Origin: Escherichia coli
Lineage (GTDB): Bacteria; Pseudomonadota; Gammaproteobacteria; Enterobacterales; Enterobacteriaceae
Reading direction: 5' to 3' (one strand)
DNA: 64,000 nucleotides
NCBI RefSeq assembly: GCF_003334335.1
Contig: NZ_QOWQ01000021.1
The notes below the pieces were generated by a model. That model was not told where the DNA came from and ran no database searches. It worked only from the letters and a program-made list of their open reading frames with translations. A program made the translations under genes and the position numbers. Positions 5,582-60,019 of the stretch are shown one piece after another (the stretch's first letter is position 1; each line of letters begins with the position of its first letter).

Positions 5582-6070
5582 GTGTTTAAATTTCTTGTAT
5601 TAACATTAGGCATTATCTCTTGCCAGGCTTACGCAGAAGATACGGTTATAGTAAACGACCATGACATTTCAGCCATCAAAGATTGTTGGCAAAAAAATTC
5701 AGATGATGATACTGACATTAACGTGATCAAATCATGCCTGCGACAAGAATACAATCTCGTCGATGCGCAATTAAATAAAGCCTATGGTGAAGCTTATCGT
5801 TATATAGAACAAGTGCCACGCACAGGTGTAAAAAAACCTGATACCGAACAACTTAACTTGCTTAAAAAATCACAGCGAGCCTGGCTGGATTTTAGGGACA
5901 AAGAATGTGAATTAATCCTTTCAAATGAGGACGTTCAGGATTTAAGTGACCCTTATTCTGAATCAGAATGGCTCTCATGTATGATCATACAGACCAATAC
6001 GCGAACTCGCCAGTTGCAGCTATACCATAACTCTGAAGATTTTTATCCAAGCCCTTTGACAAGAGGATAA
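5582..6070 (+). CDS. yecT: YecT, secreted DUF1311-family protein
   Basis: Track ORF 5561..6070; a GTG at about 5582 preceded by aagga gives a 162 aa product with signal peptide VFKFLVLTLGIISCQAYA. Confidence 0.8.
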   Translation: MFKFLVLTLGIISCQAYAEDTVIVNDHDISAIKDCWQKNSDDDTDINVIKSCLRQEYNLVDAQLNKAYGEAYRYIEQVPRTGVKKPDTEQLNLLKKSQRAWLDFRDKECELILSNEDVQDLSDPYSESEWLSCMIIQTNTRTRQLQLYHNSEDFYPSPLTRG

Positions 6071-6189
6071 TTCACATCTTTTTGGCATGTTTTGTTGCAA
6101 GCTATTCCTGATAAATAATTGCAACAAGACATCGAGCCTTTTTCACTGAGTTATTAAACATACTCGCGAGCGCGTAATTTTTTTGTCCT

Positions 6190-6582
6190 TCAGCGATAAT
6201 TCACAATCACTTCATTACGTTGTACCTTTAGCGGTGGAATTAACCGCCCACCGCCTGGCACTTCCCAGATAAATCGCAACGGTTCTGCTGCCGCTATACC
6301 GGAAAAGGCCACGGTGGTTCCGCTCTGCCCCTCTAATTCGACACAACGAGATTGCGAACACAAGCGAACCCGCAGTCCTGAAGGTGTCGGGCCGATAAGC
6401 TGATAACGCCACGCTACCAGCGTCATCAATCCTGAAGCAGGTTGTCGCGTAGAAAGAGGCGCAGACGACATCGACTCACCGCGATGATTTAGCGTAATTC
6501 CTACACTACTTGCCTGCCACATCCCCTCCCCGGCGGCTTGCACCAGCAGCGGAAACAATAATATTGCTAATAAGGTTCTCAT
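6190..6582 (-). CDS. flhE: flagellar protein FlhE
   Basis: 130 aa ORF with signal peptide MRTLLAILLFPLLVQA; last gene of the flhBAE cluster. Confidence 0.92.
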   Translation of the reverse strand: MRTLLAILLFPLLVQAAGEGMWQASSVGITLNHRGESMSSAPLSTRQPASGLMTLVAWRYQLIGPTPSGLRVRLCSQSRCVELEGQSGTTVAFSGIAAAEPLRFIWEVPGGGRLIPPLKVQRNEVIVNYR

Positions 6583-8660
6583 TATTTGCCGCCAATTGTC
6601 GCCGTCATGCGGATATGTCGGTTATCAGACAGTTCCAGATTCGACAGGACCACTAACTGCGGCAAGCTGCGGCGCAGGAAGCGAGACAATAATGGTCGCA
6701 GCGCGTGGTTCACCAACAATACTGGCGGCGCACCCAGCATCTCCTGACGGGATAGCGCTTCCTGAGTTTGCGCCAGTAAACGATCCGCCAGCCCTGGCTC
6801 CAGTCCTCCCCCGCCCTGCAGCGCCTGTAGTAACAAACGTTCCAGCGGTGTATCGAGGCCAATAACATGGACTTCATCTTTGCCAGGAAACCACTGCTGG
6901 GTAATCGCCCGTCCCAACGCCACGCGCACGACGGCGGTTAATTCATGTGGATCGCTTTGGATGGGCGCATGTTCCGCCAGCGTTTCGAGAATGGTGCGCA
7001 TATCGCGAATCGGTACTTTTTCATCGAGGAGATTTTGCAGCACTTTATGCAGTGTGGTGAGCGTGACGACGCCAGGAACGAGATCTTCCGTCAGCTTTGG
7101 CATCTCCTGGGCGACGCGATCCAACAGCTGTTGCGCCTCCTGACGACCAAACAGCTCTGCGGCATGCTGGCTAATGAGGTGGTTAAGATGCGTTGCTACC
7201 ACCGTGCTGGCCTCAACCACTGTGTACCCCTGAATCTGCGCCTGTTCTTTTAGCGCACTTTCAATCCAGATAGCATTCAGGCCAAATGCCGGATCGACGG
7301 TCGCCTCACCAGGTAACGTCCCGGCAGCGGTTCCAGGGTTAATCGCCAGCCAGCGCCCCGGATAAGCATCACCACTGCCAATCTCCACGCCTTTCATCAA
7401 AATGCGATAGCGGGCAGGTTGCAGATCCATATTGTCGCGAATGTGCACCACTGGCGGCAGAAATCCCATCTCCTGGGCAAATTTCTTGCGGATACTGCGT
7501 ATACGGCCCAACAACTCACCATCCTGCTGGAAATCGACCATCGGGATCAGTCGATAACCCACTTCCATTCCCAGAGAATCTTCCAGTTGTACATCGTTCC
7601 ACGTCGCTTCGACAACGGTATTATTCTCTGCCATTTTTACCGGTTTGGGTTCGGCAGGCGCTTTTTGTTCGCGTCCGCGTATCCACCAGGCCAGCCCCAG
7701 CAATCCGGCAGTGAACAGCAAAAATACCAGGTTCGGCATTCCAGGCACCAGGCCGAGTAAACCGAGCACGGCGGCGCTTAACAACATAACGCTTGGGTTA
7801 CTGAAAAGCTGATTCACCATCTGCTCGCCAACATCCTGATCGGTGCTGACACGCGTAACGATGACCCCCGCGGCGGTAGAAATCACCAGCGCCGGAATTT
7901 GTGCCACCAGACCGTCGCCAATGGTCAATAGCGTATAACTTTCCGCCGCGTGTCCCATGCTCATGCCATGTTGCAGCACGCCGACCAGCAACCCGCCGAC
8001 AACGTTAATGACCATGATGAGGATCCCGGCGATGGCATCGCCGCGAACAAACTTACTTGCCCCGTCCATTGAGCCGTAAAAATCGGCTTCCTGAGTCACT
8101 TCGGAGCGGCGTTTTTTCGCCTCATCTTCACCAATCAATCCAGCGTTAAGGTCGGCGTCAATCGCCATCTGCTTACCCGGCATACCATCGAGAACAAAGC
8201 GCGCACCCACTTCTGCGATACGCCCGGCACCTTTGGTAATGACCATAAAGTTGATGATCACGAGAATGACAAACACCACGATACCGATAGCGAAATTGCC
8301 ACCAACGAGGAAGTGACCGAACGCTTCGACCACCTTCCCAGCCGCCGCCGCGCCGGTATGCCCTTCCATCAAAATGATACGGGTTGAAGCCACGTTAAGT
8401 GCCAGACGCAACAACGTAGTAAACAACAGAATGGTCGGAAACGCAGCAAACTCAAGCGTGCGCTGGGTAAACATCGCCACCAGCAACACCATGATCGACA
8501 AGGCAATATTGAAGGTAAACAACAGGTCGAGTATGAATGCGGGCAGTGGCAGCACCATCATCGACAAGATCAACAGGATCAAAATCGGTCCGGCAAGGAT
8601 CTGCCATTGTGTCGATTTCAGGTTTGCGGGCAGGCGCAGCATCGCGGCCAGATTACTCAT
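6582..8660 (-). CDS. flhA: flagellar type III export apparatus protein FlhA
   Basis: Track ORF 6582..8735 carries a 25-codon upstream extension; the conserved FlhA N-terminus MSNLAAMLRLPANLK starts at 8660 (692 aa). Confidence 0.95.
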   Translation of the reverse strand: MSNLAAMLRLPANLKSTQWQILAGPILILLILSMMVLPLPAFILDLLFTFNIALSIMVLLVAMFTQRTLEFAAFPTILLFTTLLRLALNVASTRIILMEGHTGAAAAGKVVEAFGHFLVGGNFAIGIVVFVILVIINFMVITKGAGRIAEVGARFVLDGMPGKQMAIDADLNAGLIGEDEAKKRRSEVTQEADFYGSMDGASKFVRGDAIAGILIMVINVVGGLLVGVLQHGMSMGHAAESYTLLTIGDGLVAQIPALVISTAAGVIVTRVSTDQDVGEQMVNQLFSNPSVMLLSAAVLGLLGLVPGMPNLVFLLFTAGLLGLAWWIRGREQKAPAEPKPVKMAENNTVVEATWNDVQLEDSLGMEVGYRLIPMVDFQQDGELLGRIRSIRKKFAQEMGFLPPVVHIRDNMDLQPARYRILMKGVEIGSGDAYPGRWLAINPGTAAGTLPGEATVDPAFGLNAIWIESALKEQAQIQGYTVVEASTVVATHLNHLISQHAAELFGRQEAQQLLDRVAQEMPKLTEDLVPGVVTLTTLHKVLQNLLDEKVPIRDMRTILETLAEHAPIQSDPHELTAVVRVALGRAITQQWFPGKDEVHVIGLDTPLERLLLQALQGGGGLEPGLADRLLAQTQEALSRQEMLGAPPVLLVNHALRPLLSRFLRRSLPQLVVLSNLELSDNRHIRMTATIGGK

Positions 8661-9801
8661 GGGTCGGTTTCTCGTTAATAAAATCCAGGGCTTCCGGCAC
8701 CGGAAGATGAGTAGGTTGTACAGGGCGCTGTCCACCAGCCAGACGCCAGCGTTTCAGTTGCCAGACCCAGGCCAGCACTTCCGCCACCGCGGCGTACAGT
8801 TGACCCGGGATTTGTTGACCAATCTCCGCATGTCGATACAGCGCTCGCGCCAGCGGCGGCGCTTCAAGCGTCGGGACGTTATTTTCAGCGCCAATTTCAC
8901 GAATGCGCAGCGCGACCAGCCCTGCACCTTTAGCGACCACTTTCGGTGCGCTCATTTTGTTTTCGTCATACTGCAACGCTACCGAATAGTGGGTCGGGTT
9001 ATTGACAATGACATCCGCTTTCGGCACATCGGCCATCATCCGACGCCGTGCGGCAGCTCGCTGCATCTGACGGATCCGTCCTTTAACATGGGGGTCGCCT
9101 TCGCTTTGTTTGAACTCATCACGAATATCCTGCCGCGACATTCGCAGCTTTTTCAGGTGGCTGAATATTTGGAAAAAGACGTCAAATCCCACCATTGGAA
9201 TGACACCAAGCACCACCAGCAGTGCGCATAGCCCTACCAAATCCATCGCATTACCCATGGCGGTAATCGGAGACTCGGCCATTAAGCGCATCATCTGCGG
9301 CCAGTGATGCCAGAGATAAAACCCCGTCACGCTGCCAACCAGGATGTTTTTCAAAATTGCTTTAAGCAACTCCGCGCCAGTCTGAGCCGAGAACATCCGT
9401 TTAATGCCCGGTAGCGGGTTGAGTTTGGAAAACTTCGGCTGCAAGGATTTGCCGCTAAATACCAGCCCTCCCAGCATGACCGGAGAAATGAGCGCCACCA
9501 GCACCACGCCGCTAATCAGCGGCAGCAGCGCCAGCATGGCTTCTCTGATCAGCAGAATAATCTGCCCGAGGATCAGATTCGGGTCATTGATAATACTGTG
9601 ATCAAAATGCAGCCCAGCGGAGAGCATGCCCGACAATCGACGGGCCAGCGACACACCGCCAAACCAGATAACACTAACGCCCACCAGCAAAATCAGCAGT
9701 GAGGTCAGTTCACGGGAACGCGGGATTTGCCCCTCTTCCCGCGCTTTTTCTAGTCGGTGAGGTGTGGGGGCTTCTGTTTTGTCGTCGCTCTCGTCAGACA
9801 C
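8653..9801 (-). CDS. flhB: flagellar export apparatus switch protein FlhB
   Basis: 382 aa ORF MSDESDDKTEAPTPHRLEKAREEGQIPRS... with the NPTH autocleavage motif (VIVNNPTHYSVAL). Confidence 0.95.
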   Translation of the reverse strand: MSDESDDKTEAPTPHRLEKAREEGQIPRSRELTSLLILLVGVSVIWFGGVSLARRLSGMLSAGLHFDHSIINDPNLILGQIILLIREAMLALLPLISGVVLVALISPVMLGGLVFSGKSLQPKFSKLNPLPGIKRMFSAQTGAELLKAILKNILVGSVTGFYLWHHWPQMMRLMAESPITAMGNAMDLVGLCALLVVLGVIPMVGFDVFFQIFSHLKKLRMSRQDIRDEFKQSEGDPHVKGRIRQMQRAAARRRMMADVPKADVIVNNPTHYSVALQYDENKMSAPKVVAKGAGLVALRIREIGAENNVPTLEAPPLARALYRHAEIGQQIPGQLYAAVAEVLAWVWQLKRWRLAGGQRPVQPTHLPVPEALDFINEKPTHE

Positions 9802-9929
9802 GTCGCCAATCCTGGAAAGAGTATTAAGCGTGAATGATGCCAGAGCGCAAAGCGTTCAATGGTTTGAGTAAGGGGCAAAACAGGCGGGATTTAGGGCTTT
9901 TGCTGCCACACATCAAGCATAGTGTGCGT

Positions 9930-9995
9930 TTGTCGGATGCGGCGTCATCGCCTTATCAGACCGCCTGATATGACGTGGTCACGCCACATCAGGCA
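9930..9995. repeat. REP-like extragenic palindromic element
   Basis: Intergenic sequence tcggatgcggcgtcatcgccttatcagaccgcctgatatgacgtggtcacgccacatcaggc resembles enterobacterial REP units (GCCGGATGCGGCG...CGCCTTATC). Confidence 0.55.
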
Positions 9996-10002
9996 ATACA
10001 AA

Positions 10003-10647
10003 TCAAAATCCAAGACTATCCAACAAATCGTCCACCTGATCCTGACTGGCTACCACGCCGGCTTTGCTGGTATCGACCTGAGGTCCATTAAGCAAACTCT
10101 GGTTTTCACGTTTTGGACGCGACTCCTGTTCCGGGATGTTTTCCAACAGCACCATCAGCAACTGGCGTTCGATCTCCTGAATGACATCCATCATCCGCTT
10201 AATGACCTGCCCGGTGAGATCCTGAAAATCCTGCGCCATCATGATTTCCAGCAGTTGCGCGTTAGTAAAGCTGGTATGCGCGGGTACATCTGCCAGAAAT
10301 TGTCGTGTATCTGTTACCAGTTCACGGGCGTCGGCAAGGTCAATCGGATCGGCAAACCAGTCATCCCAACGTTGGGTTAACGCTTTTGCTGATTTCTCCA
10401 TTTGATCCTGATGCGGTTGTGACGCCTCAACACTGTTCAGCGCCCGCTCCGCAGCCTGGGCGGTCATCTGCACAACATAGTACAAACGATCGCGCGCATC
10501 GGGGATGGCTTCCGCCGCTTCGGCAATGGCCTGATCCAGCCCCAGTTCCCGCAAACTGTCGCGCAGCATACGCGTCAGGCTGCCGATGCGCGCAATGATA
10601 TCGCCAGCTGAATGCTCGTCAGCAGGTTTGATTGATGGTTGCATCAT
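10003..10647 (-). CDS. cheZ: CheY-phosphate phosphatase CheZ
   Basis: Track ORF has a 10-codon extension; the CheZ start [18 protein letters not shown] gives 214 aa. Confidence 0.95.
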
Positions 10648-34810: not shown

Positions 34811-35812
34811 TTACCCTCTATTGTCAAAGGGATTCAGTTCAACAGCAGCCTCTAAATGACCCGGCGCAAAGTGTGCATAACGCATAGTCATTTTTATATC
34901 GCTATGCCCCAGTATTTTTTGCAACACAAGAATATTTCCTCCCCGCATCATAAAATGGCTGGCAAACGTATGACGTAGCACATGAGTTAATTGTCCGTCA
35001 GGAAGTTCGATCTTTGCTCTCTTAATAGCGGCGTCAAAAGCCTCATAACATGGTGAAAAAAGCGCCCCGCGTTTTTTAGGAAGCATGGCCTGCAATTGAG
35101 GTGAAATAGGTACAGTGCGGTTCTTCTTTCCTTTGGTTTTAACAAATGTGATTCGTCCAGGCAGTATTTGAGATTGCTTTAATCCCTCTGCTTCACTCCA
35201 CCTGGCACCAGTCGCAAGCCCAATACGGACGACAACACCCAAATCTTTATTCCGTGACTCATCACATGCAATCAGAAGGCGTTCAATCTCATCTGCATAC
35301 AGAAACGCCTGTTCCTTTTCTTCCTCACGAAACTTGCGAATACCTGTCAATGGATTTTCACCAGACCACTCCCCAAGGCGCTTCAGTTCAGCAAAAACAG
35401 CATGTAAATATGACTGTTCGCGATTAACGGTTGCTTCACTAAGTTTTTTCTTCCCCTTTGGATTCCATTCACCTGATAACCGCCGCTCCCTGTAGATGGC
35501 AAACATATTTTTATCAAATTGAGAAGCAAACGGATCACCCAACCTAGAACAAATCGCCTCAAGTTTAGCCTTGCGCTCTTCACCGGAAGACAACGTTTTA
35601 CCGTACATTTCAAACCAGCGAGCAACCAACTCGGAAAGACGGGGGCCAGAACCATCCTGAAACTCGCCCCCTAAATTACCGTTCATTAAACGGCGCTCAT
35701 AAGAGAGCGCCTCACCTTTAGTAGCAAACTGCTTACGAATGCGTTTTCCTGCTGCTCCGTAGGGATAGCATTCACAGAGCCATTTACCAGTAGATAGTTT
35801 ACGAACAGACAT
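34811..35812 (-). CDS. int: P2-type tyrosine integrase
   Basis: Track ORF 34811..35887; start MSVRKLSTGKW aligns with the P2 Int N-terminus; catalytic R...HxxR...Y motifs (ATGARWSEA, HVLRHTFASH, MRYAHFAP). Confidence 0.9.
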   Translation of the reverse strand: MSVRKLSTGKWLCECYPYGAAGKRIRKQFATKGEALSYERRLMNGNLGGEFQDGSGPRLSELVARWFEMYGKTLSSGEERKAKLEAICSRLGDPFASQFDKNMFAIYRERRLSGEWNPKGKKKLSEATVNREQSYLHAVFAELKRLGEWSGENPLTGIRKFREEEKEQAFLYADEIERLLIACDESRNKDLGVVVRIGLATGARWSEAEGLKQSQILPGRITFVKTKGKKNRTVPISPQLQAMLPKKRGALFSPCYEAFDAAIKRAKIELPDGQLTHVLRHTFASHFMMRGGNILVLQKILGHSDIKMTMRYAHFAPGHLEAAVELNPFDNRG

Positions 35813-35846
35813 ATTAAAAAGTGCACACCAAGGAAAATTTTCGTGA

Positions 35847-36104
35847 TTAAGATGGTTGCTCAACCCGCATAAAGAGCTTTTCATCAACTAACTGCTCCCA
35901 TTCATCGGGATCAAGCTCCCAAGAAGGAGCCGACATATCATCCTCATCCCCCTCATTTACAAAAGTAACCAAATAGAAAGGAAGATCTCCGGGCTCATCG
36001 TCATCGTCCTTGACAATATGAACATTAGTAACAACTATACGATTAGATGGATTAACTTTAGATACATATAAACCAATTAATGGAATTTGCGGATTAGTTA
36101 CCAT
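35847..36104 (-). CDS. hypothetical highly acidic 85 aa protein (cargo between repressor and integrase)
   Basis: ATG with upstream agagg SD; product has runs of D/E (VKDDDDEPGDLPFYLVTFVNEGDEDDMSAPSWELDPDEWEQLVDE); no family recognised. Confidence 0.6.
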   Translation of the reverse strand: MVTNPQIPLIGLYVSKVNPSNRIVVTNVHIVKDDDDEPGDLPFYLVTFVNEGDEDDMSAPSWELDPDEWEQLVDEKLFMRVEQPS

Positions 36105-36302: not shown

Positions 36303-36947
36303 TCAGAAAAGAACACTGCCTAATAAAACACCAACAACGAAACACATTCCTGTTTCTTTCGGGTATTTTCTAATTATTTGCTGAAAATTCATCTGTAATT
36401 GACTACCGGCAGAATTGTTGGCAGTTAATTTCTTTTCTCCTTCCACTGATTGTTGGTCTAACCAGGAAAGAGCCATCTGAAGCTGAGAACGAGTAAGATC
36501 GTTTAAGCGACCCGTTCCGAAATTGATATGGCAATAGCGGATAAGTTTTTGACGAAGCACTCCATCTTCACTATTACGAAGTAAAATACTTACAAGCGCC
36601 TTACGCGCATCATGATCTTTACATCGTTCAAGCATCGCACACAGAAAGCTCTCTGCGGTCTTATATTGATTCATTGTTATATCATCAATACTGTCTACAC
36701 CAATCTCTGCATGCAATTTTTGCCAAATAATAAACGCCTCGGTATTGCTGGCATCTACAATAGCAGCAACTAATCTATTTAATGCCTTCCGTTGCCCCTT
36801 AAGTAAGGGGCGTGGATCACTGTTATTGCTCGAAGGAATTGCGATATTGACGGTATGAGAGCCATCATATCGCCCTATCTGAATATTCTTTTCTTGGTAA
36901 TCTCGCCCAGCAATACGATTATCTGAACCGTTTGAGTTGACCGTCAT
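36303..36947 (-). CDS. hypothetical 214 aa protein with C-terminal hydrophobic anchor (cargo between repressor and integrase)
   Basis: Long ORF with good SD (ggaggtgg before ATG), C-terminal TM-like tail MCFVVGVLLGSVLF; N-terminus shares NRIAGRDY motif with the upstream repressor C-terminus. Confidence 0.7.
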   Translation of the reverse strand: MTVNSNGSDNRIAGRDYQEKNIQIGRYDGSHTVNIAIPSSNNSDPRPLLKGQRKALNRLVAAIVDASNTEAFIIWQKLHAEIGVDSIDDITMNQYKTAESFLCAMLERCKDHDARKALVSILLRNSEDGVLRQKLIRYCHINFGTGRLNDLTRSQLQMALSWLDQQSVEGEKKLTANNSAGSQLQMNFQQIIRKYPKETGMCFVVGVLLGSVLF

Positions 36948-36962
36948 GCCACCTCCTTGCTA

Positions 36963-37367
36963 TCACTTACCCTTTGTTTCGTTATAGTCACGGCCTGCGA
37001 TGCGGTTATTCCCGCCAGAGATATTTAACCCTCCCCCTGATGACTGACTCTCCTTTTCAGTGACTGCACCTTTCAAAGCACCAATCACCGCGTTTTTCAC
37101 ATCTAGTGAGGCACTCCGAAAACGTGTGATCAACTCCTGCTCATCATCGTTATAAGTTTCAGGTGAATGAATTCCCAACACGACATACTGAACATCAAGG
37201 CCAAAACGCGACAACGCTGATAAGTACGCCGCATCAGGAAAGCTATCCCCTTTCTCATATCTAAGTTGGGTTAACTTTTTAACCCCACCAATATCACTCA
37301 TAGCGACTTGGCTAAGACCCAGCCGTTCCCTTTCCTCACGCAACCGTTGGCCAATATCATTTTTCAT
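36963..37367 (-). CDS. XRE-family HTH repressor (immunity repressor, P2 C / CI equivalent)
   Basis: 134 aa; N-terminal HTH_XRE (IGQRLREERERLGLSQVAMSDIGGVKKLTQLRYEKG); leftward, divergent from the cox-like gene as in P2 immunity regions. Confidence 0.8.
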   Translation of the reverse strand: MKNDIGQRLREERERLGLSQVAMSDIGGVKKLTQLRYEKGDSFPDAAYLSALSRFGLDVQYVVLGIHSPETYNDDEQELITRFRSASLDVKNAVIGALKGAVTEKESQSSGGGLNISGGNNRIAGRDYNETKGK

Positions 37368-53566: not shown

Positions 53567-54376
53567 ATGCTGACACCGGCACAACGATACCTTCAGCGCG
53601 TGATGGCGCATCATCGGGCTGATCCATTCAGTCGCGAAGAGCAGCGAACACGAACGGCACATGAACAGGTTCTTCACCAGTTACGCCTCGCCCAGTTGCA
53701 GCTGAAGGGCGTGCAGTCGAACATCGCGAAAGCGGAGCTGAAGAAGCACCTGATACCGAATTTTGAAGGCTGGATAGACGGCACGCTGGCAGGCGACAGC
53801 GGACGCCAGGACGAAGTCATTACCACCATGATGGTGTGGGCAATTGACTGCCGGGATTATCCGCTGGCACTGCGTATCGGTGAGTACGTCATTCGTCACC
53901 GGCTGGCACTGCCGGACAACTTCGGGCGCGATTCGGCGACCGTGCTCACCGAAGAAATTGCCGAAGTTGTGCTGACAGAAGCCGCCACCAACAGCGAAAC
54001 CGACTTATCCGGCTATATCCGTATGCTGGACGAGCTGGATGCACTGGTTCACGACCAGGACATGCCGGATCAGGTTCGTGCAAAACTACATAAGGCGCGG
54101 GCATTTTCACGGCGCGCATCAGGCAGTACGGAAGACATGACTGTGTCACTTGGTCTGCTGCGTGAAGCCATGCGCATCAATCCGGCAGCGGGCGTGAAGC
54201 GTGAAATCGCCACGCTGGCCAGAAAGGTATCAAAGGTTCAGCCGGAACCGGAAAAACCGGCAGAAGAGAAAAGTAAATCGAAAGCAACATCAGGGCGCAA
54301 AAAGCCGACTACAAAAGCGACGGCCAGAAAAGCCACGAAAAAAACCGCCGCAAAACCGGCGCGCAAGGCGACCTGA
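53567..54376 (+). CDS. M: terminase small/endonuclease subunit (P2 gpM family)
   Basis: 269 aa with lysine-rich C-terminus; position after N. Confidence 0.75.
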   Translation: MLTPAQRYLQRVMAHHRADPFSREEQRTRTAHEQVLHQLRLAQLQLKGVQSNIAKAELKKHLIPNFEGWIDGTLAGDSGRQDEVITTMMVWAIDCRDYPLALRIGEYVIRHRLALPDNFGRDSATVLTEEIAEVVLTEAATNSETDLSGYIRMLDELDALVHDQDMPDQVRAKLHKARAFSRRASGSTEDMTVSLGLLREAMRINPAAGVKREIATLARKVSKVQPEPEKPAEEKSKSKATSGRKKPTTKATARKATKKTAAKPARKAT

Positions 54377-54484
54377 TAACACCGGACCCGACCTCGTCGG
54401 CAGGCGGCGCGACCGGTGATCTGATCGCTGACTCCCGGTCATTTTCACCGGTCGCCCACCGCCTGATCTACAGGAGAAGACATC

Positions 54485-54979
54485 ATGAGCATGGTAGCCA
54501 GACCCCGTGTGAACGACGCCACGGATGACACGACAGACATCGACGACGGAGAAGCGCGCATCAGTACAGACGCGTTCTGGCCGGATATCGTGCTGAAAGA
54601 GCTGCGCCTTGCCATGCGCATTCCCGGGCGCACCACCACCTCACGTCTGCTGCATTCGGCCACCGAAGCTGTGGCACATGTAACGGCAGAGCTTGACGCC
54701 TGGAAACAGAAACAGGAGGCGGCGGGACGGTCGACACTGGCGGACGTTCCGGCAGCACACATCAACGGTGAGAGCGTGAACGTGCACCGGTATCGACGCG
54801 CGGTGTATGCACTGACCCGCGCGGGCGTTCTTGAGCGTTCGCGGGATGTGGACACCACCGACAAAGGTGATCGCCGGGCCGATGCGCTGGACATGCAGAT
54901 TGAAGATATGTGGCGCGATGCACGCTGGGCAATATCCGATATTCGCGGCGTCAGACGGATTTATGCGGAGCTGATTTAA
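54485..54979 (+). CDS. L: head completion/stabilisation protein (P2 gpL family)
   Basis: 164 aa in the conserved position. Confidence 0.75.
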   Translation: MSMVARPRVNDATDDTTDIDDGEARISTDAFWPDIVLKELRLAMRIPGRTTTSRLLHSATEAVAHVTAELDAWKQKQEAAGRSTLADVPAAHINGESVNVHRYRRAVYALTRAGVLERSRDVDTTDKGDRRADALDMQIEDMWRDARWAISDIRGVRRIYAELI

Positions 54980-55179
54980 TGAAGGTAACCGCGCATGACG
55001 GCGACACCGTTGACTTACTCTGCCAGCGTCATTACGGCATGACAAAGGGCGTGACAGAGCGCGTTCTGGCTGCCAATCCGGGGCTGAGTAACACGGTATT
55101 CCTCACTGCCGGGCAGGAAGTTGAATTACCGGAAATCACACAGGAAAAACAGCGCGAAACCGTTCAGTTGTGGGATTGA
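54979..55179 (+). CDS. X: tail protein X (P2 gpX family)
   Basis: 66 aa MKVTAHDGDTVDLLCQRHYGMTKGVTERVLAANPGL...; start overlaps the L stop (TAATG). Confidence 0.7.
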   Translation: MKVTAHDGDTVDLLCQRHYGMTKGVTERVLAANPGLSNTVFLTAGQEVELPEITQEKQRETVQLWD

Positions 55180-55181
55180 TT

Positions 55182-55472
55182 ATGTTTCAGAGAATTTACG
55201 ACCACATTACGTTTTTCACATCCGTCATGGTCACCGGTATAGGGGTTATGACGCTGAGCGAGAAGATGGCGCTGGCAGGACTGATTCTGGGGGCGCTTTC
55301 ACTGCTGCGCGGATGGATGCACAGAACACGTATGGAGCAGGCACAGGAGCGGCGCAATGAGCTTATTGCACGCATTGCCGACCAGATGCAGCACCGACCA
55401 CTAAAAGGCAGCGAGAAGCGCGCTCTGGAAGCCCTGAATGCAGACGGGGAATCACATGCCAGGACAGATTAA
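55182..55472 (+). CDS. Y: holin (P2 gpY-like)
   Basis: About 96 aa from internal ATG of track ORF 55170..55472; hydrophobic helices (FFTSVMVTGIGVMTL, ALAGLILGALSLL) then charged C-terminus. Confidence 0.7.
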   Translation: MFQRIYDHITFFTSVMVTGIGVMTLSEKMALAGLILGALSLLRGWMHRTRMEQAQERRNELIARIADQMQHRPLKGSEKRALEALNADGESHARTD

Positions 55473-55995
55473 ACGCTATGCCGTTGCCGCCATCGTGGCG
55501 CTGGGTTTTTCGCTGGCCCCCGGGGAGCTGAGAACCTCACAGGAGGCACAGGAAAAAATTGCCACCTGGGAAGAGTGTCGGGCATTCCCGTACAGGGATA
55601 TCGCTGGCGTGAAAACCGTGGGTTGTGGCTCAACGGGAAACGTCCCCGACCGCCACCATACCAAACAGGAAGTTGCCGGTCGATGGGTGAACGATTTACG
55701 ACGGGCGGAGAACTGCATCAATCAGAATTTCAATGGCCGCGACATGCCACAACGCCACTTTGAGGCAATGACGGATGCTGCCTTTAATCTGGGGTGCAAA
55801 GGCCTGATGTGGTTTAAGGGGCGTGACGGGAGGATGCACAGAACAACCATCTGGAAGTTCGCTCAGGGAAAGAACTGGAGCGCAATGTGCGGCAGGCTGA
55901 CGGATTTTGTGAACAGCGGCGGACGCTATTCACAGGGGCTGTTTAACCGGCGCAATGACTTCAGGAACTGGTGTATGAACGGAGTGAAGCAATGA
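55456..55995 (+). CDS. K: endolysin (lysozyme-like, possible SAR N-terminus)
   Basis: Track ORF 55438..55995; N-terminal hydrophobic stretch RYAVAAIVALGFSLAPG then lysozyme-like domain; directly after holin. Confidence 0.75.
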   Translation: MPGQIKRYAVAAIVALGFSLAPGELRTSQEAQEKIATWEECRAFPYRDIAGVKTVGCGSTGNVPDRHHTKQEVAGRWVNDLRRAENCINQNFNGRDMPQRHFEAMTDAAFNLGCKGLMWFKGRDGRMHRTTIWKFAQGKNWSAMCGRLTDFVNSGGRYSQGLFNRRNDFRNWCMNGVKQ

Positions 55996-56426
55996 AAACA
56001 CCTGCCGTGTTGCTCTGGTTTCTTGCCACCCTGTTGCTTTGTGGCCTGACAGGCTGGGAAGCATACCGCAAAGGGAAGGAAAGTCTCGGACGGGAACAGA
56101 TGATGGACATCATAGAGGACAACCGCGCCGCCATGCAGGAAGTTCGCCATGCATACACAGACTTTTCCAGGGTGATAAACGTGATCCGCATTCTGGACCA
56201 GCAACGGATTGCAGAAGGAGAGCAACGACGTGAAGAAATGCAAAAAGACGCGCAGGGTGACACGTGTGCCAGCGCTTATCCTCCCGCTGCTGTTACTGAG
56301 CGGTTGCAGCAACACGCAGCACACATTGAAAACCAGACTCGTTTACGAGCCGGTGCCGACAGTTCTGACAAGGCAGACCCCGGTTCCGGCACTGGAAATA
56401 CCCGTGACATGGTACAGGGTGACTGA
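55992..56426 (+). CDS. i-spanin (Rz/LysB-like)
   Basis: Start overlaps endolysin stop; single N-terminal TM (MKTPAVLLWFLATLLLCGLTGW) followed by charged helical periplasmic domain. Confidence 0.7.
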   Translation: MKTPAVLLWFLATLLLCGLTGWEAYRKGKESLGREQMMDIIEDNRAAMQEVRHAYTDFSRVINVIRILDQQRIAEGEQRREEMQKDAQGDTCASAYPPAAVTERLQQHAAHIENQTRLRAGADSSDKADPGSGTGNTRDMVQGD

Positions 56427-56541
56427 ATGGAGCGATCGGCTACTGGAAGCACTCGACACATGCAACGCAGACAAGGCTGCGATCGCCTGGCTGGATAAAC
56501 AAAGAGCAGAGCGGGCGCAAGATGCGCCCCATCAGGAGTAA
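56230..56541 (+). CDS. o-spanin (Rz1/LysC-like outer-membrane lipoprotein), alternate frame overlapping the i-spanin gene
   Basis: GTG preceded by aaggag; lipoprotein signal (V)KKCKKTRRVTRVPALILPLLLLSGC; starts inside the i-spanin gene in another frame and extends past it. Confidence 0.7.
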   Translation: MKKCKKTRRVTRVPALILPLLLLSGCSNTQHTLKTRLVYEPVPTVLTRQTPVPALEIPVTWYRVTEWSDRLLEALDTCNADKAAIAWLDKQRAERAQDAPHQE

Positions 56542-56544
56542 ACG

Positions 56545-58515
56545 ATGAGCAAAAAACACTTTGAACTGATTACTGCCACCAACCGCGCAGAATTCGCTGA
56601 AAAAGTTAACAAGCGATTACAGGAAGGCTGGGAACTTCTCGGTAATGCCGGTATTGCATCAGAGCCGGGAGTCCCCTGGTATCTCATGCAGGCTATGGTT
56701 TCAGGCAGTGATGACCAGGGAGGCACCATTATCACCCCGACATCCGACAGCGAACCGGAGTGGTATTACGTTGTGGTGAGCGCTGGTCAGTCCAACTCTA
56801 TGGCATACGGTGAGGGGTTACCTCTCCCGGACAGTTACGATAAACCCGATTCGCGCATTCGCCAGCTGGCACGCCGCAGCACCGTAACCCCGAGCGGAAA
56901 AGCCTGTGCCTATAACGACATCATTCTGGCGGATCACTGCCTGCATGACGTGCAGGATATGAGCCAGTACAACCACCCGAAAGCCGACCTGAACAAAGGT
57001 CAGTATGGCTGTGTGAGTCAGGGATTGCACATTGCGAAGCGCCTGCTGCCATTTATCCCGGCAAATGCGGGGATCCTTCTGGTCCCATGCAGCCGTGGCG
57101 GTTCCGGCTTTACAACCGGTGATGCGGGGCAATTCAGCGAGATCGGCGGCGCAACTGAAAAATCCTGCCGCTGGGGAACGAACACGCCGCTGTACAAGGA
57201 TTTAATCAGCCGCACAAAAGCAGCGCTGGCGAAAAATCCGAAAAACGTCCTGCTGGCCGTCTGCTGGACACAGGGCGAGGCAGATCTTGAGAAAGAACAA
57301 AACGCCGCACAGCATAAAGATCTTTTCACAGCCATGGTGAAGCAGTTCCGGGCTGACCTGGCCGATGTTGCGAAGCAGTGCAACCAGGGCAACCCTGAAA
57401 GCGTGCCGTGGATTTGTGGAGATACCACCTACCACTGGAAAAAAACCTACGAAGCACAGTACGCAACCGTGTATGGCGGATACAAAAACAGCACTGAGAA
57501 GAATATTGTTTTTGTGCCTTTTGTTACGGATGAGTACGGGAAAAACACCCCAACAAACGAGCCGACAGAAGATCCGGATATTGCGGAAGCGGGTTATTAC
57601 GGTGCCGCATCCCGCAGTAGCGGAAACTGGGTAAGCCATCTGCGTGGAACGCACTTCAGCTCATGGGCCCGCCGGGGCATTATTGCCGATCGCATGGCGT
57701 CAGCAATCCTGCTTAACGTCGGCCGCACGCTGCCATTTATTGCGGGTACAGAGCCGGAACGCGTGGCAAAACCATCACAGGATGCACCGGGCGGCATCAG
57801 TAAGCCATCTTCACCGGAAGCAGAACAACCGGCAGTCAGACCGGGGCCGGTCACGCTCATGAGTCTGCTGGCATCATCTCCTGAACTGGAAAGCCAGGGC
57901 TGGACGCTGAGCGAAGGCAAAAACGGGGCCAACACACCAAAACAACTGAAAGACACGCTGATCGGTGATGAGGAAGCAACAGGGAAAAAAGCCCTGAAAC
58001 TGACCAAACAGGAAGGCAATACCTGGTATCTGGAGCATAAGGCCGGTAATGGTGCTGACCTTCTGAAAAATGGCGGGACTGTAAGTTGCCGATTCAAAAT
58101 CGAGGGTGAGCTGAAAAAAGACCAGTACGCAATGGCGATGTACTGGAAAACATCAGCATTACCGCAGGATGTGAAATTACTGGGGGCAGATCCAAATAAT
58201 TTATTGCTCTCATTCTTTCTTCAGACAGACAGCGCAAACCTGAATCTGATGTATCACAAAACGCCAAACGAACAACTGGGAACCTTTGGTCAGTTCAATA
58301 ACAACTGGCACACCATAGCGTTTCGTTTTGCGGGAAACAACAGCACCCAGGTAACACCGGTTCTGGATGGCGTGGACGGAAAACCGTTCATGCTTTCCAC
58401 ATCAAAAGCCGATGTTACCAACGACACGTTACGCGTGACCGATATCACGTATCGGCCGACCTATACCGTACTGATTGACAGCCTGAGCGTTGTCGTAAAT
58501 CAGCCACCGGCATAA
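56545..58515 (+). CDS. NanS-p-like prophage sialate O-acetylesterase (DUF1737 + SGNH hydrolase + C-terminal domain)
   Basis: 656 aa; N-terminal MSKKHFELITATNRAEFAEKVNKRLQEGWELLG (DUF1737-like), SGNH block VVVSAGQSNSMAYGEG, overall size as in prophage NanS-p esterases. Confidence 0.75.
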   Translation: MSKKHFELITATNRAEFAEKVNKRLQEGWELLGNAGIASEPGVPWYLMQAMVSGSDDQGGTIITPTSDSEPEWYYVVVSAGQSNSMAYGEGLPLPDSYDKPDSRIRQLARRSTVTPSGKACAYNDIILADHCLHDVQDMSQYNHPKADLNKGQYGCVSQGLHIAKRLLPFIPANAGILLVPCSRGGSGFTTGDAGQFSEIGGATEKSCRWGTNTPLYKDLISRTKAALAKNPKNVLLAVCWTQGEADLEKEQNAAQHKDLFTAMVKQFRADLADVAKQCNQGNPESVPWICGDTTYHWKKTYEAQYATVYGGYKNSTEKNIVFVPFVTDEYGKNTPTNEPTEDPDIAEAGYYGAASRSSGNWVSHLRGTHFSSWARRGIIADRMASAILLNVGRTLPFIAGTEPERVAKPSQDAPGGISKPSSPEAEQPAVRPGPVTLMSLLASSPELESQGWTLSEGKNGANTPKQLKDTLIGDEEATGKKALKLTKQEGNTWYLEHKAGNGADLLKNGGTVSCRFKIEGELKKDQYAMAMYWKTSALPQDVKLLGADPNNLLLSFFLQTDSANLNLMYHKTPNEQLGTFGQFNNNWHTIAFRFAGNNSTQVTPVLDGVDGKPFMLSTSKADVTNDTLRVTDITYRPTYTVLIDSLSVVVNQPPA

Positions 58516-58579
58516 CAATGCTTCCCAGCCATCCGGCGGGGAAGCTCGCTGACAACCGGGAAAATAAAAGGAGCAAGCC

Positions 58580-58744
58580 ATGGGATTTATTCATCAGATA
58601 ATGTTGTATTTCAGTACCGCCGTATCCCTTCTGTATCTGATCTCAGGGGGATATAAAGCCGTCCGCAATTTCTGGAACAAAAAGATAGATGAAGCAGCCG
58701 CCAGGAAATCAGCTGGCGGAGCGGTCAACGGGGTATTGCCATAA
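58580..58744 (+). CDS. small hydrophobic protein, about 54 aa
   Basis: ATG preceded by aaggag; MGFIHQIMLYFSTAVSLLYLISGGYKAVRNFWNKKIDEAAARKSAGGAVNGVLP; found by manual translation. Confidence 0.45.
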   Translation: MGFIHQIMLYFSTAVSLLYLISGGYKAVRNFWNKKIDEAAARKSAGGAVNGVLP

Positions 58745-58796
58745 CAACAGGCACAGCGCATCAGAACGGCACCACTGTCCACAGCAAAAGAAACAA

Positions 58797-58820
58797 AAAA
58801 CCCTCCGGTATACGGAGGGT
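58797..58820. other. stable hairpin in the esterase-R intergenic region
   Basis: ccctccg gtatac ggaggg, preceded by an A-run but not followed by a T-run on the + strand. Confidence 0.4.
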
Positions 58821-58916
58821 GCAAGAGGGGAAAGGTGAGCAAGAAAGAACCCGAATTAAAAGCCATTTAATTTTGAGATTTTTAATTGCCACACGCAACA
58901 CGTTCTACGGTGTTTT

Positions 58917-59387
58917 ATGCTGAAACTGAATTCATTACGCGAAGCTCTGACCAGCAACTGCCGGTGGTGTAAGGCCAGCCCGGAAAAATTCACGGTATTC
59001 ATTGAATCGGGTGGCATTGAAACCACCGGTGAATCCCCCTCATTCCTGTACCGCTACAACCTGGTGTTGTTCGTCATGGACTTCACAGAAAGTATCGACA
59101 ACATCATGCTGCCGGTCATGGCGTGGCTGTACAGGAATCAGCCGGATCTTCTTCTCAATCCGGAGAAGAACAAAAGCATCAAATTTTCGACGGCCATCAA
59201 CGATGACGACAGTGCCGATATCCTGCTGGAAATCCCGGTATGGGAGCGCGTGATTGTGCGCCGTAATGACGACGGCACGGTGACGGCAGAGCACATCGGT
59301 GAGCCCCCGATAAGCCGGGCACTGGAAGCATGGCGCGTAGTGTTTGAAGACATGACGTGGCGAACCGGAACGGAGACCAGCACATGA
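58917..59387 (+). CDS. R: tail completion protein (P2 gpR family)
   Basis: 156 aa in the conserved position before S. Confidence 0.75.
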   Translation: MLKLNSLREALTSNCRWCKASPEKFTVFIESGGIETTGESPSFLYRYNLVLFVMDFTESIDNIMLPVMAWLYRNQPDLLLNPEKNKSIKFSTAINDDDSADILLEIPVWERVIVRRNDDGTVTAEHIGEPPISRALEAWRVVFEDMTWRTGTETST

Positions 59388-60019
59388 GAGCGGACCGCGA
59401 ACTGGATGTCATCTTTCAGGATATTCTTTCCGGCCTGTCGGCAGCCGGAATTCAGCGCACGGCAATGAGCGTGGGTAAGGTCGTCCGACAGCTACAGACA
59501 AAACGCATCAGAAGCCAGGTATCCCCGGAAGGCCAGCCATGGGAGAAACGAAAACGCCGCATCATGCGCATACAAAAAGGCGTGAAGTTTATCTGGAAGG
59601 ACGGCCAGGTAAGAAACCTGAAAAACTGGAGCACGTCACAGGGATGTTTCGGGCAGAAAATCACCGGCTACGATACGGACGCCGGGGGGATCAGGACGTT
59701 TTACAAGGCAGACATCGGGGACTACCTGGAAATTAACACACAGCGCGTCGCAGCAAGAGCATCACGTCGCTCACCTATGTTCGAAAAGCTGAGAACAGCA
59801 CGCTTTCTGAGAATCATCCCCGACACAAACGGCGTAAGTGTCGGCTTTCAGGGCCGGGCCGCGCGTATTGCCAGAGTGCATCAGTTCGGTGAGGTGGGCC
59901 TGGTATCACCCGGGAACGCCACGAAATACCCCGTGCGCGAGCTGCTGGGCCTGAACGAAAAAGACAAACAGCAAATCACAGAAACCGTGATTGCCGGACT
60001 GGGGAAAGCAGCGAAATGA
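59384..60019 (+). CDS. S: virion morphogenesis / tail completion protein (P2 gpS family)
   Basis: Internal ATG of track ORF 59357..60019 overlapping the R stop (ATGA). Confidence 0.7.
   Translation: MRADRELDVIFQDILSGLSAAGIQRTAMSVGKVVRQLQTKRIRSQVSPEGQPWEKRKRRIMRIQKGVKFIWKDGQVRNLKNWSTSQGCFGQKITGYDTDAGGIRTFYKADIGDYLEINTQRVAARASRRSPMFEKLRTARFLRIIPDTNGVSVGFQGRAARIARVHQFGEVGLVSPGNATKYPVRELLGLNEKDKQQITETVIAGLGKAAK

Follow-up and report, generated by a model that had tools for sequence, protein, structure and literature searches.

A predicted NanS-p-type sialate O-acetylesterase encoded as late-operon cargo in P2-family prophages of Escherichia coli

NanS-p proteins have so far been treated as a trait of the Shiga toxin (Stx) phages and other lambdoid phages of pathogenic Escherichia coli. 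The lambdoid enzymes are active esterases for 5-N-acetyl-9-O-acetylneuraminic acid (Neu5,9Ac2). They support growth on this sugar and are induced together with the phage late genes (PMC8065619; PMC10462455). Whether the benefit falls to the lysogen or to the phage is an open question (PMC8065619). Examples are L0105/z1466 of phage 933W and vb_24B_21 (gp84) of phage phi24B. These prophage-borne proteins combine a DUF1737 domain, a SASA esterase domain and a DUF6645 domain, and have no signal peptide. Their genes occupy the late transcript close to the lysis genes, between Q/stx and the holin gene S, and are often followed by a DUF1378 gene. Here, we describe a gene of this type (nanS-p) at positions 56545 to 58515 of a 64,000-nucleotide stretch of E. 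coli DNA, contig NZ_QOWQ01000021.1 (hereafter the window). Unlike its lambdoid counterparts, this gene is carried by a P2-family myovirus (Peduoviridae), and lies after the spanin genes and before gene R. With a probability of roughly 0.72, we propose that nanS-p and the adjacent DUF1378 gene form an accessory cassette within the late operon, and that nanS-p yields an active sialate O-acetylesterase, set free when the cell lyses. In the open literature that we searched, nothing was found on sialate esterases or NanS-p in a P2-like context; only Stx and lambdoid prophages are discussed. A preprint describing a nan-9 genome-wide association study proved unrelated.

The open reading frame (ORF) starts with ATG and encodes 656 amino acids. 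Pfam places DUF1737 (PF08410) on residues 3–52 (E 3.4e-8), SASA on residues 148–274 (E 1.4e-12) and DUF6645 (PF20350) on residues 507–620 (E 3.1e-44). Amongst sequences in the Protein Data Bank (PDB), E. coli NanS/YjhS (3pt5) matches residues 70–389 (E 2.3e-114) and the C-terminal domain of phi24B NanS-p (6yp6) matches residues 434–652 (E 1.2e-63). The match to PHROG 143 spans the whole protein (E 1e-296). Stx-phage NanS-p is ~56% identical across 99% of the length. No NCBIfam profile matched the 656-residue protein. The N-terminus is MSKKHFELITATNRAEF and there is no signal peptide. These matches, which are far beyond chance, confirm the three-domain architecture. Hence, the central claim of an earlier model-made annotation (the original prediction), that the gene encodes a NanS-p-like three-part esterase, is upheld. 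On every feature of the family that can be read from a sequence, the predicted protein belongs to NanS-p. It departs from the described members in carrier phage family, genomic position and N-domain subtype; the unusual genomic setting concerns the surroundings of the gene and not the protein itself. RefSeq labels P2-type nanS-p genes only as ‘DUF6645 domain-containing protein’.

The esterase fold and active site resemble those of chromosomal NanS (YjhS; 3pt5). That protein is a single-domain enzyme of the nan regulon and, unlike the window protein, has neither a DUF1737 nor a lectin-like domain. Catalysis by NanS depends on Ser19 and His301, with an oxyanion hole formed by Gln18 and a Gly, and involves no catalytic Asp (PMC9063846). 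In the 3pt5 alignment, Gln18, Ser19 and His301 correspond to Gln82, Ser83 and His370 of the window protein; all are kept. The dyad, the oxyanion hole and the four blocks of SGNH type expected of the family are present. The GQSN motif is G81-Q82-S83-N84, with the Gln82-Ser83 codons at positions 56788–56793. The QGE block is at residues 243–245. Block IV is R367-G-T-H370 (RGTHF), with the His370 codon at positions 57652–57654. The original prediction had called for a Ser-His-Asp check. The Ser and His, together with Gln82, bear this out; the Asp was mis-specified because the family, Stx and lambdoid NanS-p included, uses a Ser-His dyad (PMC9063846). In the C-terminal domain of phi24B NanS-p (vb_24B_21) the proposed sugar-site aromatics are Y510, Y515, Y540 and F611. 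Three of the four are kept in the window protein, as Y528, Y533 and F558. Judged by these residues, the predicted enzyme is very probably active.

The gene occupies the late operon of a P2-type prophage in the order O, N, M, L, X, holin, endolysin, lysB, lysC, then nanS-p and DUF1378, then R and S. PHROG matches of the flanking genes (Table 1) and the RefSeq annotation of a near-identical prophage bear out the position that had been given, between the spanin genes and gene R. This prophage, in E. coli S1-CAM-02-A, is 99.7% identical to the window at the locus and has the full P2 gene order. Portal and terminase genes lie on the opposite strand. The head and lysis side comprises the GPO scaffold, a P2-family capsid protein, gpM, L, X and the lysis genes. 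The tail side comprises R, S, V, W, J, I, tail fibre genes, sheath, tube, tape measure, D and ogr. The prophage adjoins serS. The late gene order of the P2 family, Q P and O N M L X...lysC R S V W J I H, is the one found here. In phage P2 itself, lysC (8202–8492) overlaps R (8455–8922) within the O operon, and in phage P88 the spanin genes are followed by R with no gene between. The claim that these genes are adjacent in P2 was therefore correct.

The nanS-p ATG begins 3 nt after the lysC stop codon (junction CAGGAGTAAACGATG), and its AGGAG ribosome-binding site (56534–56538) falls within the last lysC codons. A scan of positions 54300–59500 found no σ70-type promoter upstream of nanS-p; Ogr-dependent late promoters were not scanned for. 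The sole σ70-like match in this interval is inside nanS-p, and matches were fewer than in shuffled sequence. From the 3-nt spacing, the ribosome-binding site inside lysC, the lack of a promoter match and the lack of a signal peptide, we infer that nanS-p shares a transcript with the lysis genes and is translationally coupled to them, and that its product would leave the cell only on lysis. The tie between esterase production and the lytic programme, made in the original prediction, accords with these signals. Placement in the late operon was also recognised correctly. As a principle it has a precedent, since the late transcript of lambdoid phages includes nanS-p too, between Q/stx and the holin gene S.

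Downstream, a separate AAGGAG ribosome-binding site serves the DUF1378 ORF. The 172-nt gap between DUF1378 and R holds a strong G+C-rich hairpin (ACCCTCCG ... CGGAGGGT). Because its T-run is on the minus strand only, this hairpin is not a plus-strand terminator and should not stop rightward transcription. No minus-strand gene lies to the right of the hairpin (58796–58822). Gene R of the window lacks the ATGCTGA overlap of lysC stop and R start seen in P88, and its ribosome-binding site is weak. A moron, in the strict sense, has its own promoter and terminator. Here, there is no upstream σ70-like promoter and the T-run is on the wrong strand. Presence or absence among close relatives, and deviating base composition, are moron-like features that the gene does have. 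We therefore class nanS-p, which had been introduced as a moron, as late-operon cargo and not as a moron in the strict sense. In being non-essential, and present or absent among P2-like phages, the cassette resembles the P2 cargo genes old, tin, Z/fun and orf30, the last of which adjoins the O operon. Those genes occupy other sites and have their own transcription signals. Unlike them, the window cassette is embedded in the late operon and appears to be translationally coupled to it.

We searched 5426 complete E. coli genomes for the locus. The window version, at 99.5–99.7% identity and annotated intact, is present in 14, and a sister lineage in 2. The junction is occupied by a further lineage (c) in 373 genomes, O25b:H4-ST131 strains among them, and the empty P88-type junction was found in 689. 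In total, the slot between lysC and R is occupied in ~389 of the 5426 genomes (~7%). A scan of IMG/VR returned 33 loci. All have the order gpN-M-L-X-lysis-LysB-LysC-NanS-p, normally followed by R-S-V, in a sample biased to P2 contexts because one search pattern was specific to the P2-type N-domain. These loci fall into four lineages: a (that of the window), b (L002 and L023), b' (L021 and L034) and c. Lineage c is P88-like (Xuanwuvirus), with an M15 endolysin and a capsid protein 62% identical to that of the window. Far from being the site of a singular insertion, as had been supposed, the slot shows a widespread polymorphism for presence or absence of the gene across at least four P2-type lineages.

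The original prediction had suggested a comparison of the junction in P2-like prophages. P88 itself lacks nanS-p. In locus L009, 1998 bp replace 93 bp of P88, with 95% identity in both flanks. On the lysC side the breakpoint is within the final ~15 codons of the gene, and on the R side within the initial ~14 codons. An overlapping lysC/R arrangement is common to P2, P88 and the empty junctions. The N-domain (0.488), C-domain and DUF1378 segments have a G+C content of 0.48–0.50, and the backbone 0.55–0.57. Because of the shared overlap and the lower G+C content, gain of the cassette is the more parsimonious direction than loss. The window is 90–99% identical to lineages b and b' in the head genes and 75–84% identical in lysB/lysC. 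Identity is 66–68% in the first half of nanS-p and 45–57% in the second half and DUF1378 region. It climbs to ~90% exactly at R, where the backbone resumes. The slot is old and has been repeatedly reshuffled, rather than created in one recent event. A megablast search with positions 55400–59400 gave no match in the phage collection, the backbone being too divergent from the phages it holds. The ORF is intact (656 residues) in the window, and in the lineage a loci L004–L007 of IMG/VR, where translated matches cover residues 1–656. Some P88-like copies have decayed: L032 and L033 have a frameshift, and L035 and L036 have an internal deletion, through which the first part of the esterase now runs into the last part of the C-domain.

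Three phage records carry lineage c (ON470623, ON470599 and PV468777). ON470623 (L038) and PV468777 (L037) stop inside nanS-p, and ON470599 has its N-domain match at a similar distance from the record end. Records that end in nanS-p probably reflect assembly or prophage-boundary breaks at a multi-copy gene, which leave nanS-p truncated or without annotation there. The record vB_EcoM-705R2 is a partial genome, and its source, a preprint, concerns phages located in the genomes of clinical isolates; it therefore probably represents a prophage prediction and not a virion that was isolated.

We compared the three domains separately, using 66 distinct full-length alleles from 118 loci. The P2-type N-domains have the consensus M-[ST]-[SK]-K-[HN]-F-x-L-I-T-A ... 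E-P-G-[VT]-P-W-Y-L-M-Q-A-M. They are 56–100% identical to each other and 32–42% identical to the best non-P2 N-domain. For the window N-domain the best non-P2 match sampled is 36% identical and that of phi24B is 28% identical. All 40 sampled P2-type N-domains are directly behind P2-type capsid and lysis genes; 5 of these loci have a lambdoid downstream flank. The remainder of the protein behaves differently. In lineage c, the esterase is 88–98% and the C-domain 97–100% identical to lambdoid alleles, with DNA homology beginning at about codon 69, the boundary between linker and esterase. Lineages b and b' share 96% identity in the N-domain, 63% in the esterase and 29% in the C-domain. For pairs with unsaturated dS, the ratio of nonsynonymous to synonymous substitution (dN/dS) is 0.06–0.09 for the N-domain within P2-type lineages, 0.09–0.16 for the esterase and 0.25–0.49 for the C-domain. 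On these comparisons, the N-domain is a P2-specific subtype under strong purifying selection. It remains attached to its phage backbone, and it is the esterase and C-domain that are traded with lambdoid alleles. This pattern is new. The P2-specific N-domain, the DUF1378 gene and the evidence for capsid binding by DUF1737 in the phi24B preprint were all missed when the gene was first noted.

A word-indexed protein search with the N-domain returned two partial fragments only. An exhaustive search of representative proteins with the 60-residue N-domain gave 10 weak matches, and no single-domain P2-type DUF1737 protein. The best of these are contig-end fragments of the same gene. P0010 is on an 809-nt contig with an Rz-like gene upstream only. 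We also scanned one genome per species (GTDB) with a degenerate DNA pattern for PWYLMQAM. For this exact motif there was no genuine match outside E. coli, and the single pattern match, in a metagenome-assembled genome from Lake Baikal, is a spurious frame within an unrelated gene. Locus L118 (AAQSPC010000088.1, 809 nt) has an N-domain variant with the loop ATAPGAPFYLMQAI, fused to the start of an esterase and directly behind a Phage_lysis (Rz, PF03245) gene. It may represent another lineage with nanS-p right behind the spanin, on a very short contig. In L055 and L062, NanS-p-like esterases have a 110-residue N-terminus that is not DUF1737 (MSDSQWKMLSAMPGEFSVKVAGG...), and a DUF1378 gene follows. 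Here, the same enzyme seems to carry a different N-terminal module.

The reading that we prefer is release of an active esterase at lysis. The enzyme would be made only upon late lytic transcription, alongside the holin, endolysin and spanins. It would build up in the cytoplasm and escape when the cell bursts. Outside, it would take 9-O-acetyl groups off the sialic acids of mucin glycans, directed to the glycan by the C-domain. N-acetylneuraminic acid (Neu5Ac) would thereby become accessible to sialidases and to surviving sibling lysogens. In addition, DUF1737 may hold some or all of the protein on the phage particle, and of the steps proposed this one is the least certain. Several observations weigh against this reading. 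The function of the P2-type alleles is predicted from sequence. Among the sampled alleles, none exceeds 73% identity to the window esterase or 58% identity to its C-domain. Block IV is RGTH, a variant of the RSSH or RASH of NanS and Stx-phage NanS-p, and the fourth sugar-site aromatic aligns to a gap. Because of these differences the substrate specificity of the predicted enzyme may depart from that of the sampled alleles. An internal Ogr-dependent late promoter is possible. Furthermore, P2-family prophages are often hard to induce, and any gain for lysogens would be smaller as a result.

Other explanations account for parts of the data. If the gene were a classical moron of lysogenic conversion, its own promoter would be active in the uninduced lysogen and every lysogenic cell would gain extra esterase. 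The lower G+C content of the N-domain, C-domain and DUF1378 segments, and the existence of related phages with and without the gene, fit such a scheme. It is nonetheless improbable: no σ70-like promoter lies upstream, the only match is inside the gene and matches are fewer than chance, the start codon is 3 nt past the lysC stop, and a cytoplasmic enzyme with no signal peptide would not meet extracellular or periplasmic Neu5,9Ac2. Somewhat less improbable, though still unlikely, is a target on the bacterial surface. An O-acetylated capsule, such as polysialic acid, or O-antigen would be de-O-acetylated, which would aid adsorption or the escape of particles from debris in the manner of a receptor-destroying enzyme. 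This idea has been raised for Stx phages (PMC8065619), and the same SGNH chemistry is found on virions in the haemagglutinin-esterases of other viruses (PMC9063846). The C-domain varies strongly between alleles (29–58% identity), as would be expected of a specificity module. However, our analysis gave no link between carrier strains and sialylated or O-acetylated surface polymers, and the known substrate of characterised NanS-p enzymes is Neu5,9Ac2, both free and mucin-bound. Least probable is that the ORF is a non-functional prophage remnant. Frameshifted and internally deleted P88-like copies do exist, but the ORF is intact in the window and in L004–L007, the locus recurs at near identity in 14 complete genomes, all catalytic and block residues are kept, and dN/dS is well under 1 in all three domains.

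A further possibility, compatible with release at lysis, is that the esterase is borne on the capsid. By cryo-electron microscopy (cryo-EM) and proteomics, phi24B gp84 is a capsid-decorating protein (bioRxiv 10.64898/2026.04.10.717836, a preprint). Its DUF1737 domain consists of one helix and three antiparallel strands, and six copies form a hexamer over each central hexon of the T=9 capsid, where a loop containing Tyr42 serves as anchor. The remainder of gp84 is lost after release by self-processing near SSP motifs (bioRxiv 10.64898/2026.04.10.717836). An AlphaFold2 model of the window N-domain predicts strands at residues 5–11, 36–40 and 43–53 and a helix at residues 14–26, with a predicted local distance difference test (pLDDT) score of 80.8. 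This matches the beta-alpha-beta-beta fold described for phi24B. Foldseek gave no significant match for the model in a copy of the PDB that does not contain the phi24B capsid model; the top match was dodecin (E 0.04, template modelling score 0.55). The variable part of the N-domain is the loop from Gly33 to Gln49. Here, the Tyr42 ‘tooth’ of phi24B aligns to Ile37, with Trp45 and Tyr46 in the same loop, in an alignment that is unreliable for this loop, whose length and sequence differ from those in phi24B. Linker 2 of the window protein (KPSSPEA) contains PSSP and resembles RPSSPSG of phi24B. Linker 1 (SGSDDQGG) has no SSP.

We also compared loop type with head module, in lambdoid loci that reach far enough downstream; these loci are phylogenetically non-independent. 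The 24B-type loop accompanies a 24B-type terminase and portal in 11 of 12 loci, and three long-loop types accompany a third head module in 12 of 12. The commonest lambdoid loop, the short PVAITPYTLMQ, is found with lambda-like heads (13 loci), another head type (9 loci) and the third head module (2 loci). Thus, the association between loop type and head module is strong for the long-loop types but is not one-to-one. A strict one-to-one match is ruled out by the occurrence of PVAITPYTLMQ with two or three head modules.

For the window protein, capsid attachment would mean that DUF1737 docks on gpN hexamers, the building units of the T=7 shell in P2-type phages. A sialate esterase and a lectin would thereby be displayed on the virion for adhesion to, or movement in, mucus, and possibly shed later by proteolysis as in phi24B. 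The beneficiary would be the phage rather than the lysogen. We regard this as possible and hold it tentatively. The homologue gp84 has been seen on a capsid, although the source is a preprint and, in the T=9 shell of phi24B, the flat central hexons are the sole binding sites of the domain; the P2 shell is of the T=7 class. The predicted fold agrees with that described, but the Tyr42 ‘tooth’ aligns to Ile37, with Trp45 and Tyr46 in the same loop. A PSSP like the proposed phi24B processing site is present in linker 2 and an SSP motif is missing from linker 1. The gpN hexamers accept a decorating protein, Psu of phage P4, but only on small P4 capsids (PMC7552001). In all 40 sampled loci, the P2-type N-domain comes straight after P2-type capsid and lysis genes. 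Its identity to non-P2 domains does not exceed 42%, and its dN/dS (0.06–0.09) is the lowest of the three domains. Lineages b, b' and c keep this domain while the esterase and C-domain are swapped. A neutral alternative is that the N-domain is locked to the backbone merely for want of homology upstream, since diverged N-domains would let lambdoid exchange begin only at the esterase. Amongst lambdoid loci the loop types do track head modules (11/12 and 12/12), against which must be set the non-independence of the loci and the span of PVAITPYTLMQ across two or three modules. A shade more tentatively still, the P2-type DUF1737 could be a docking module adapted to gpN hexamers, with an exchangeable enzyme part and a docking part that follows capsid type. 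In that case, the P2-family phages of ~7% of E. coli genomes would send out T=7 particles with a sialate O-acetylesterase and a lectin, and a full-size P2-type capsid would have its first decoration protein.

Two described systems offer comparisons. Psu of P4 would be alike only if the protein does dock, as an accessory protein outside the gpN hexamers (PMC7552001). It differs in being a knotted helical dimer found on small T=4 capsids only, with no enzyme; no homology was found or expected. The haemagglutinin-esterases of influenza C virus and coronaviruses place an SGNH 9-O-acetyl-sialate esterase and a lectin on particles (PMC9063846), and offer a functional analogy only. They differ as envelope glycoproteins of eukaryotic viruses, with a type I SGNH domain, a full triad and no sequence relationship; the window esterase is of type II. 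The P88-like pairs, ~95% identical in their flanks (P88 and L009) and differing by nanS-p, amount to a natural experiment. They make it testable whether the benefit lies in the feeding of lysogens on mucin or in the virion in mucus, and also bear on DUF1737 as a general docking domain specific to capsid type.

The DUF1378 gene of the cassette encodes a protein 50% identical to vb_24B_23 of phi24B, where nanS-p also precedes. DUF1378 genes after nanS-p have been noted for Stx2a phages and are seen in many E. coli prophages. Hence, nanS-p and DUF1378 are a two-gene unit common to the window P2-type phage and lambdoid phages. The DUF1378 gene is missing from lineages b and c; the b' copy is 71% identical. 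In the 3' half of the window cassette, E. coli lambdoid copies reach at most ~66% DNA identity. Five chimeric loci (L010, L013, L016, L066 and L074; around positions 6000–10400) are of P2 type on the left of nanS-p, in the head and lysis genes and also in the N-domain. On the right, they have lambdoid S (99% identical to that of phi24B), R and Rz. Locus L056 (215–6891) is the reciprocal chimera, with a lambdoid-type N-domain followed by P2-type R and S. These structures suggest recombination of co-resident P2-like and lambdoid prophages via the conserved esterase domain, or else assembly chimeras.

Table 1. Features of the nanS-p locus, with positions in the window and the evidence for each.
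Feature	Position	Strand	Evidence
nanS-p-type gene, 656 aa, no signal peptide	56545..58515	+	PHROG, PDB, Pfam and Stx-phage alignments
DUF1737 N-domain, aa 1-54, P2-specific subtype, loop ASEPGVPWYLMQAM	56545..56706	+	Pfam, AlphaFold2 model, identity, dN/dS, G+C content
NanS-type SGNH (type II) esterase domain, aa 70-390	56752..57714	+	3pt5 alignment, residue mapping
C-terminal lectin-like jelly-roll domain (DUF6645), aa 434-656	57844..58512	+	6yp6 and DUF6645 matches
Holin, P2-type lysis cassette	55182..55472	+	phrog_1350, E 1.7e-24
Endolysin (lysozyme)	55456..55995	+	phrog_7, E 3.9e-47; ‘lysozyme’ in 99.7%-identical prophage
LysB, Rz-like inner-membrane spanin	55992..56426	+	phrog_214, E 3.8e-25
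LysC, Rz1-like outer-membrane lipoprotein spanin	56326..56541	+	phrog_3001/456, E 1.7e-16; RefSeq lysC
DUF1378 small membrane-protein gene, 54 aa	58580..58744	+	phrog_494, E 2.4e-23; RefSeq ‘DUF1378 family protein’
G+C-rich hairpin	58796..58822 (stem 58800-58820)	.	T-run on minus strand only
Gene R, tail terminator	58917..59387	+	phrog_65, E 2.8e-54; identity profile
Gene S, tail completion	59384..60019	+	phrog_26/36427; RefSeq annotation of near-identical prophage

Two gene starts differ between sources. For LysC, the ORF list gives 56209–56541 (TTG start, 110 residues) and RefSeq gives 56326–56541 (71 residues, starting near the lipobox). For S, the ORF list has GTG at 59357 and the RefSeq-style start is the ATG at 59384, which overlaps the R stop. 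No tRNA genes were found in the 64-kb window. An integrase gene lies at 34811–35887. Beside it, on the minus strand, are early-region cargo genes for a 213-residue protein (36303–36947; phrog_5825, with weak membrane-protein matches) and a 133-residue repressor-like regulator (36963–37367).

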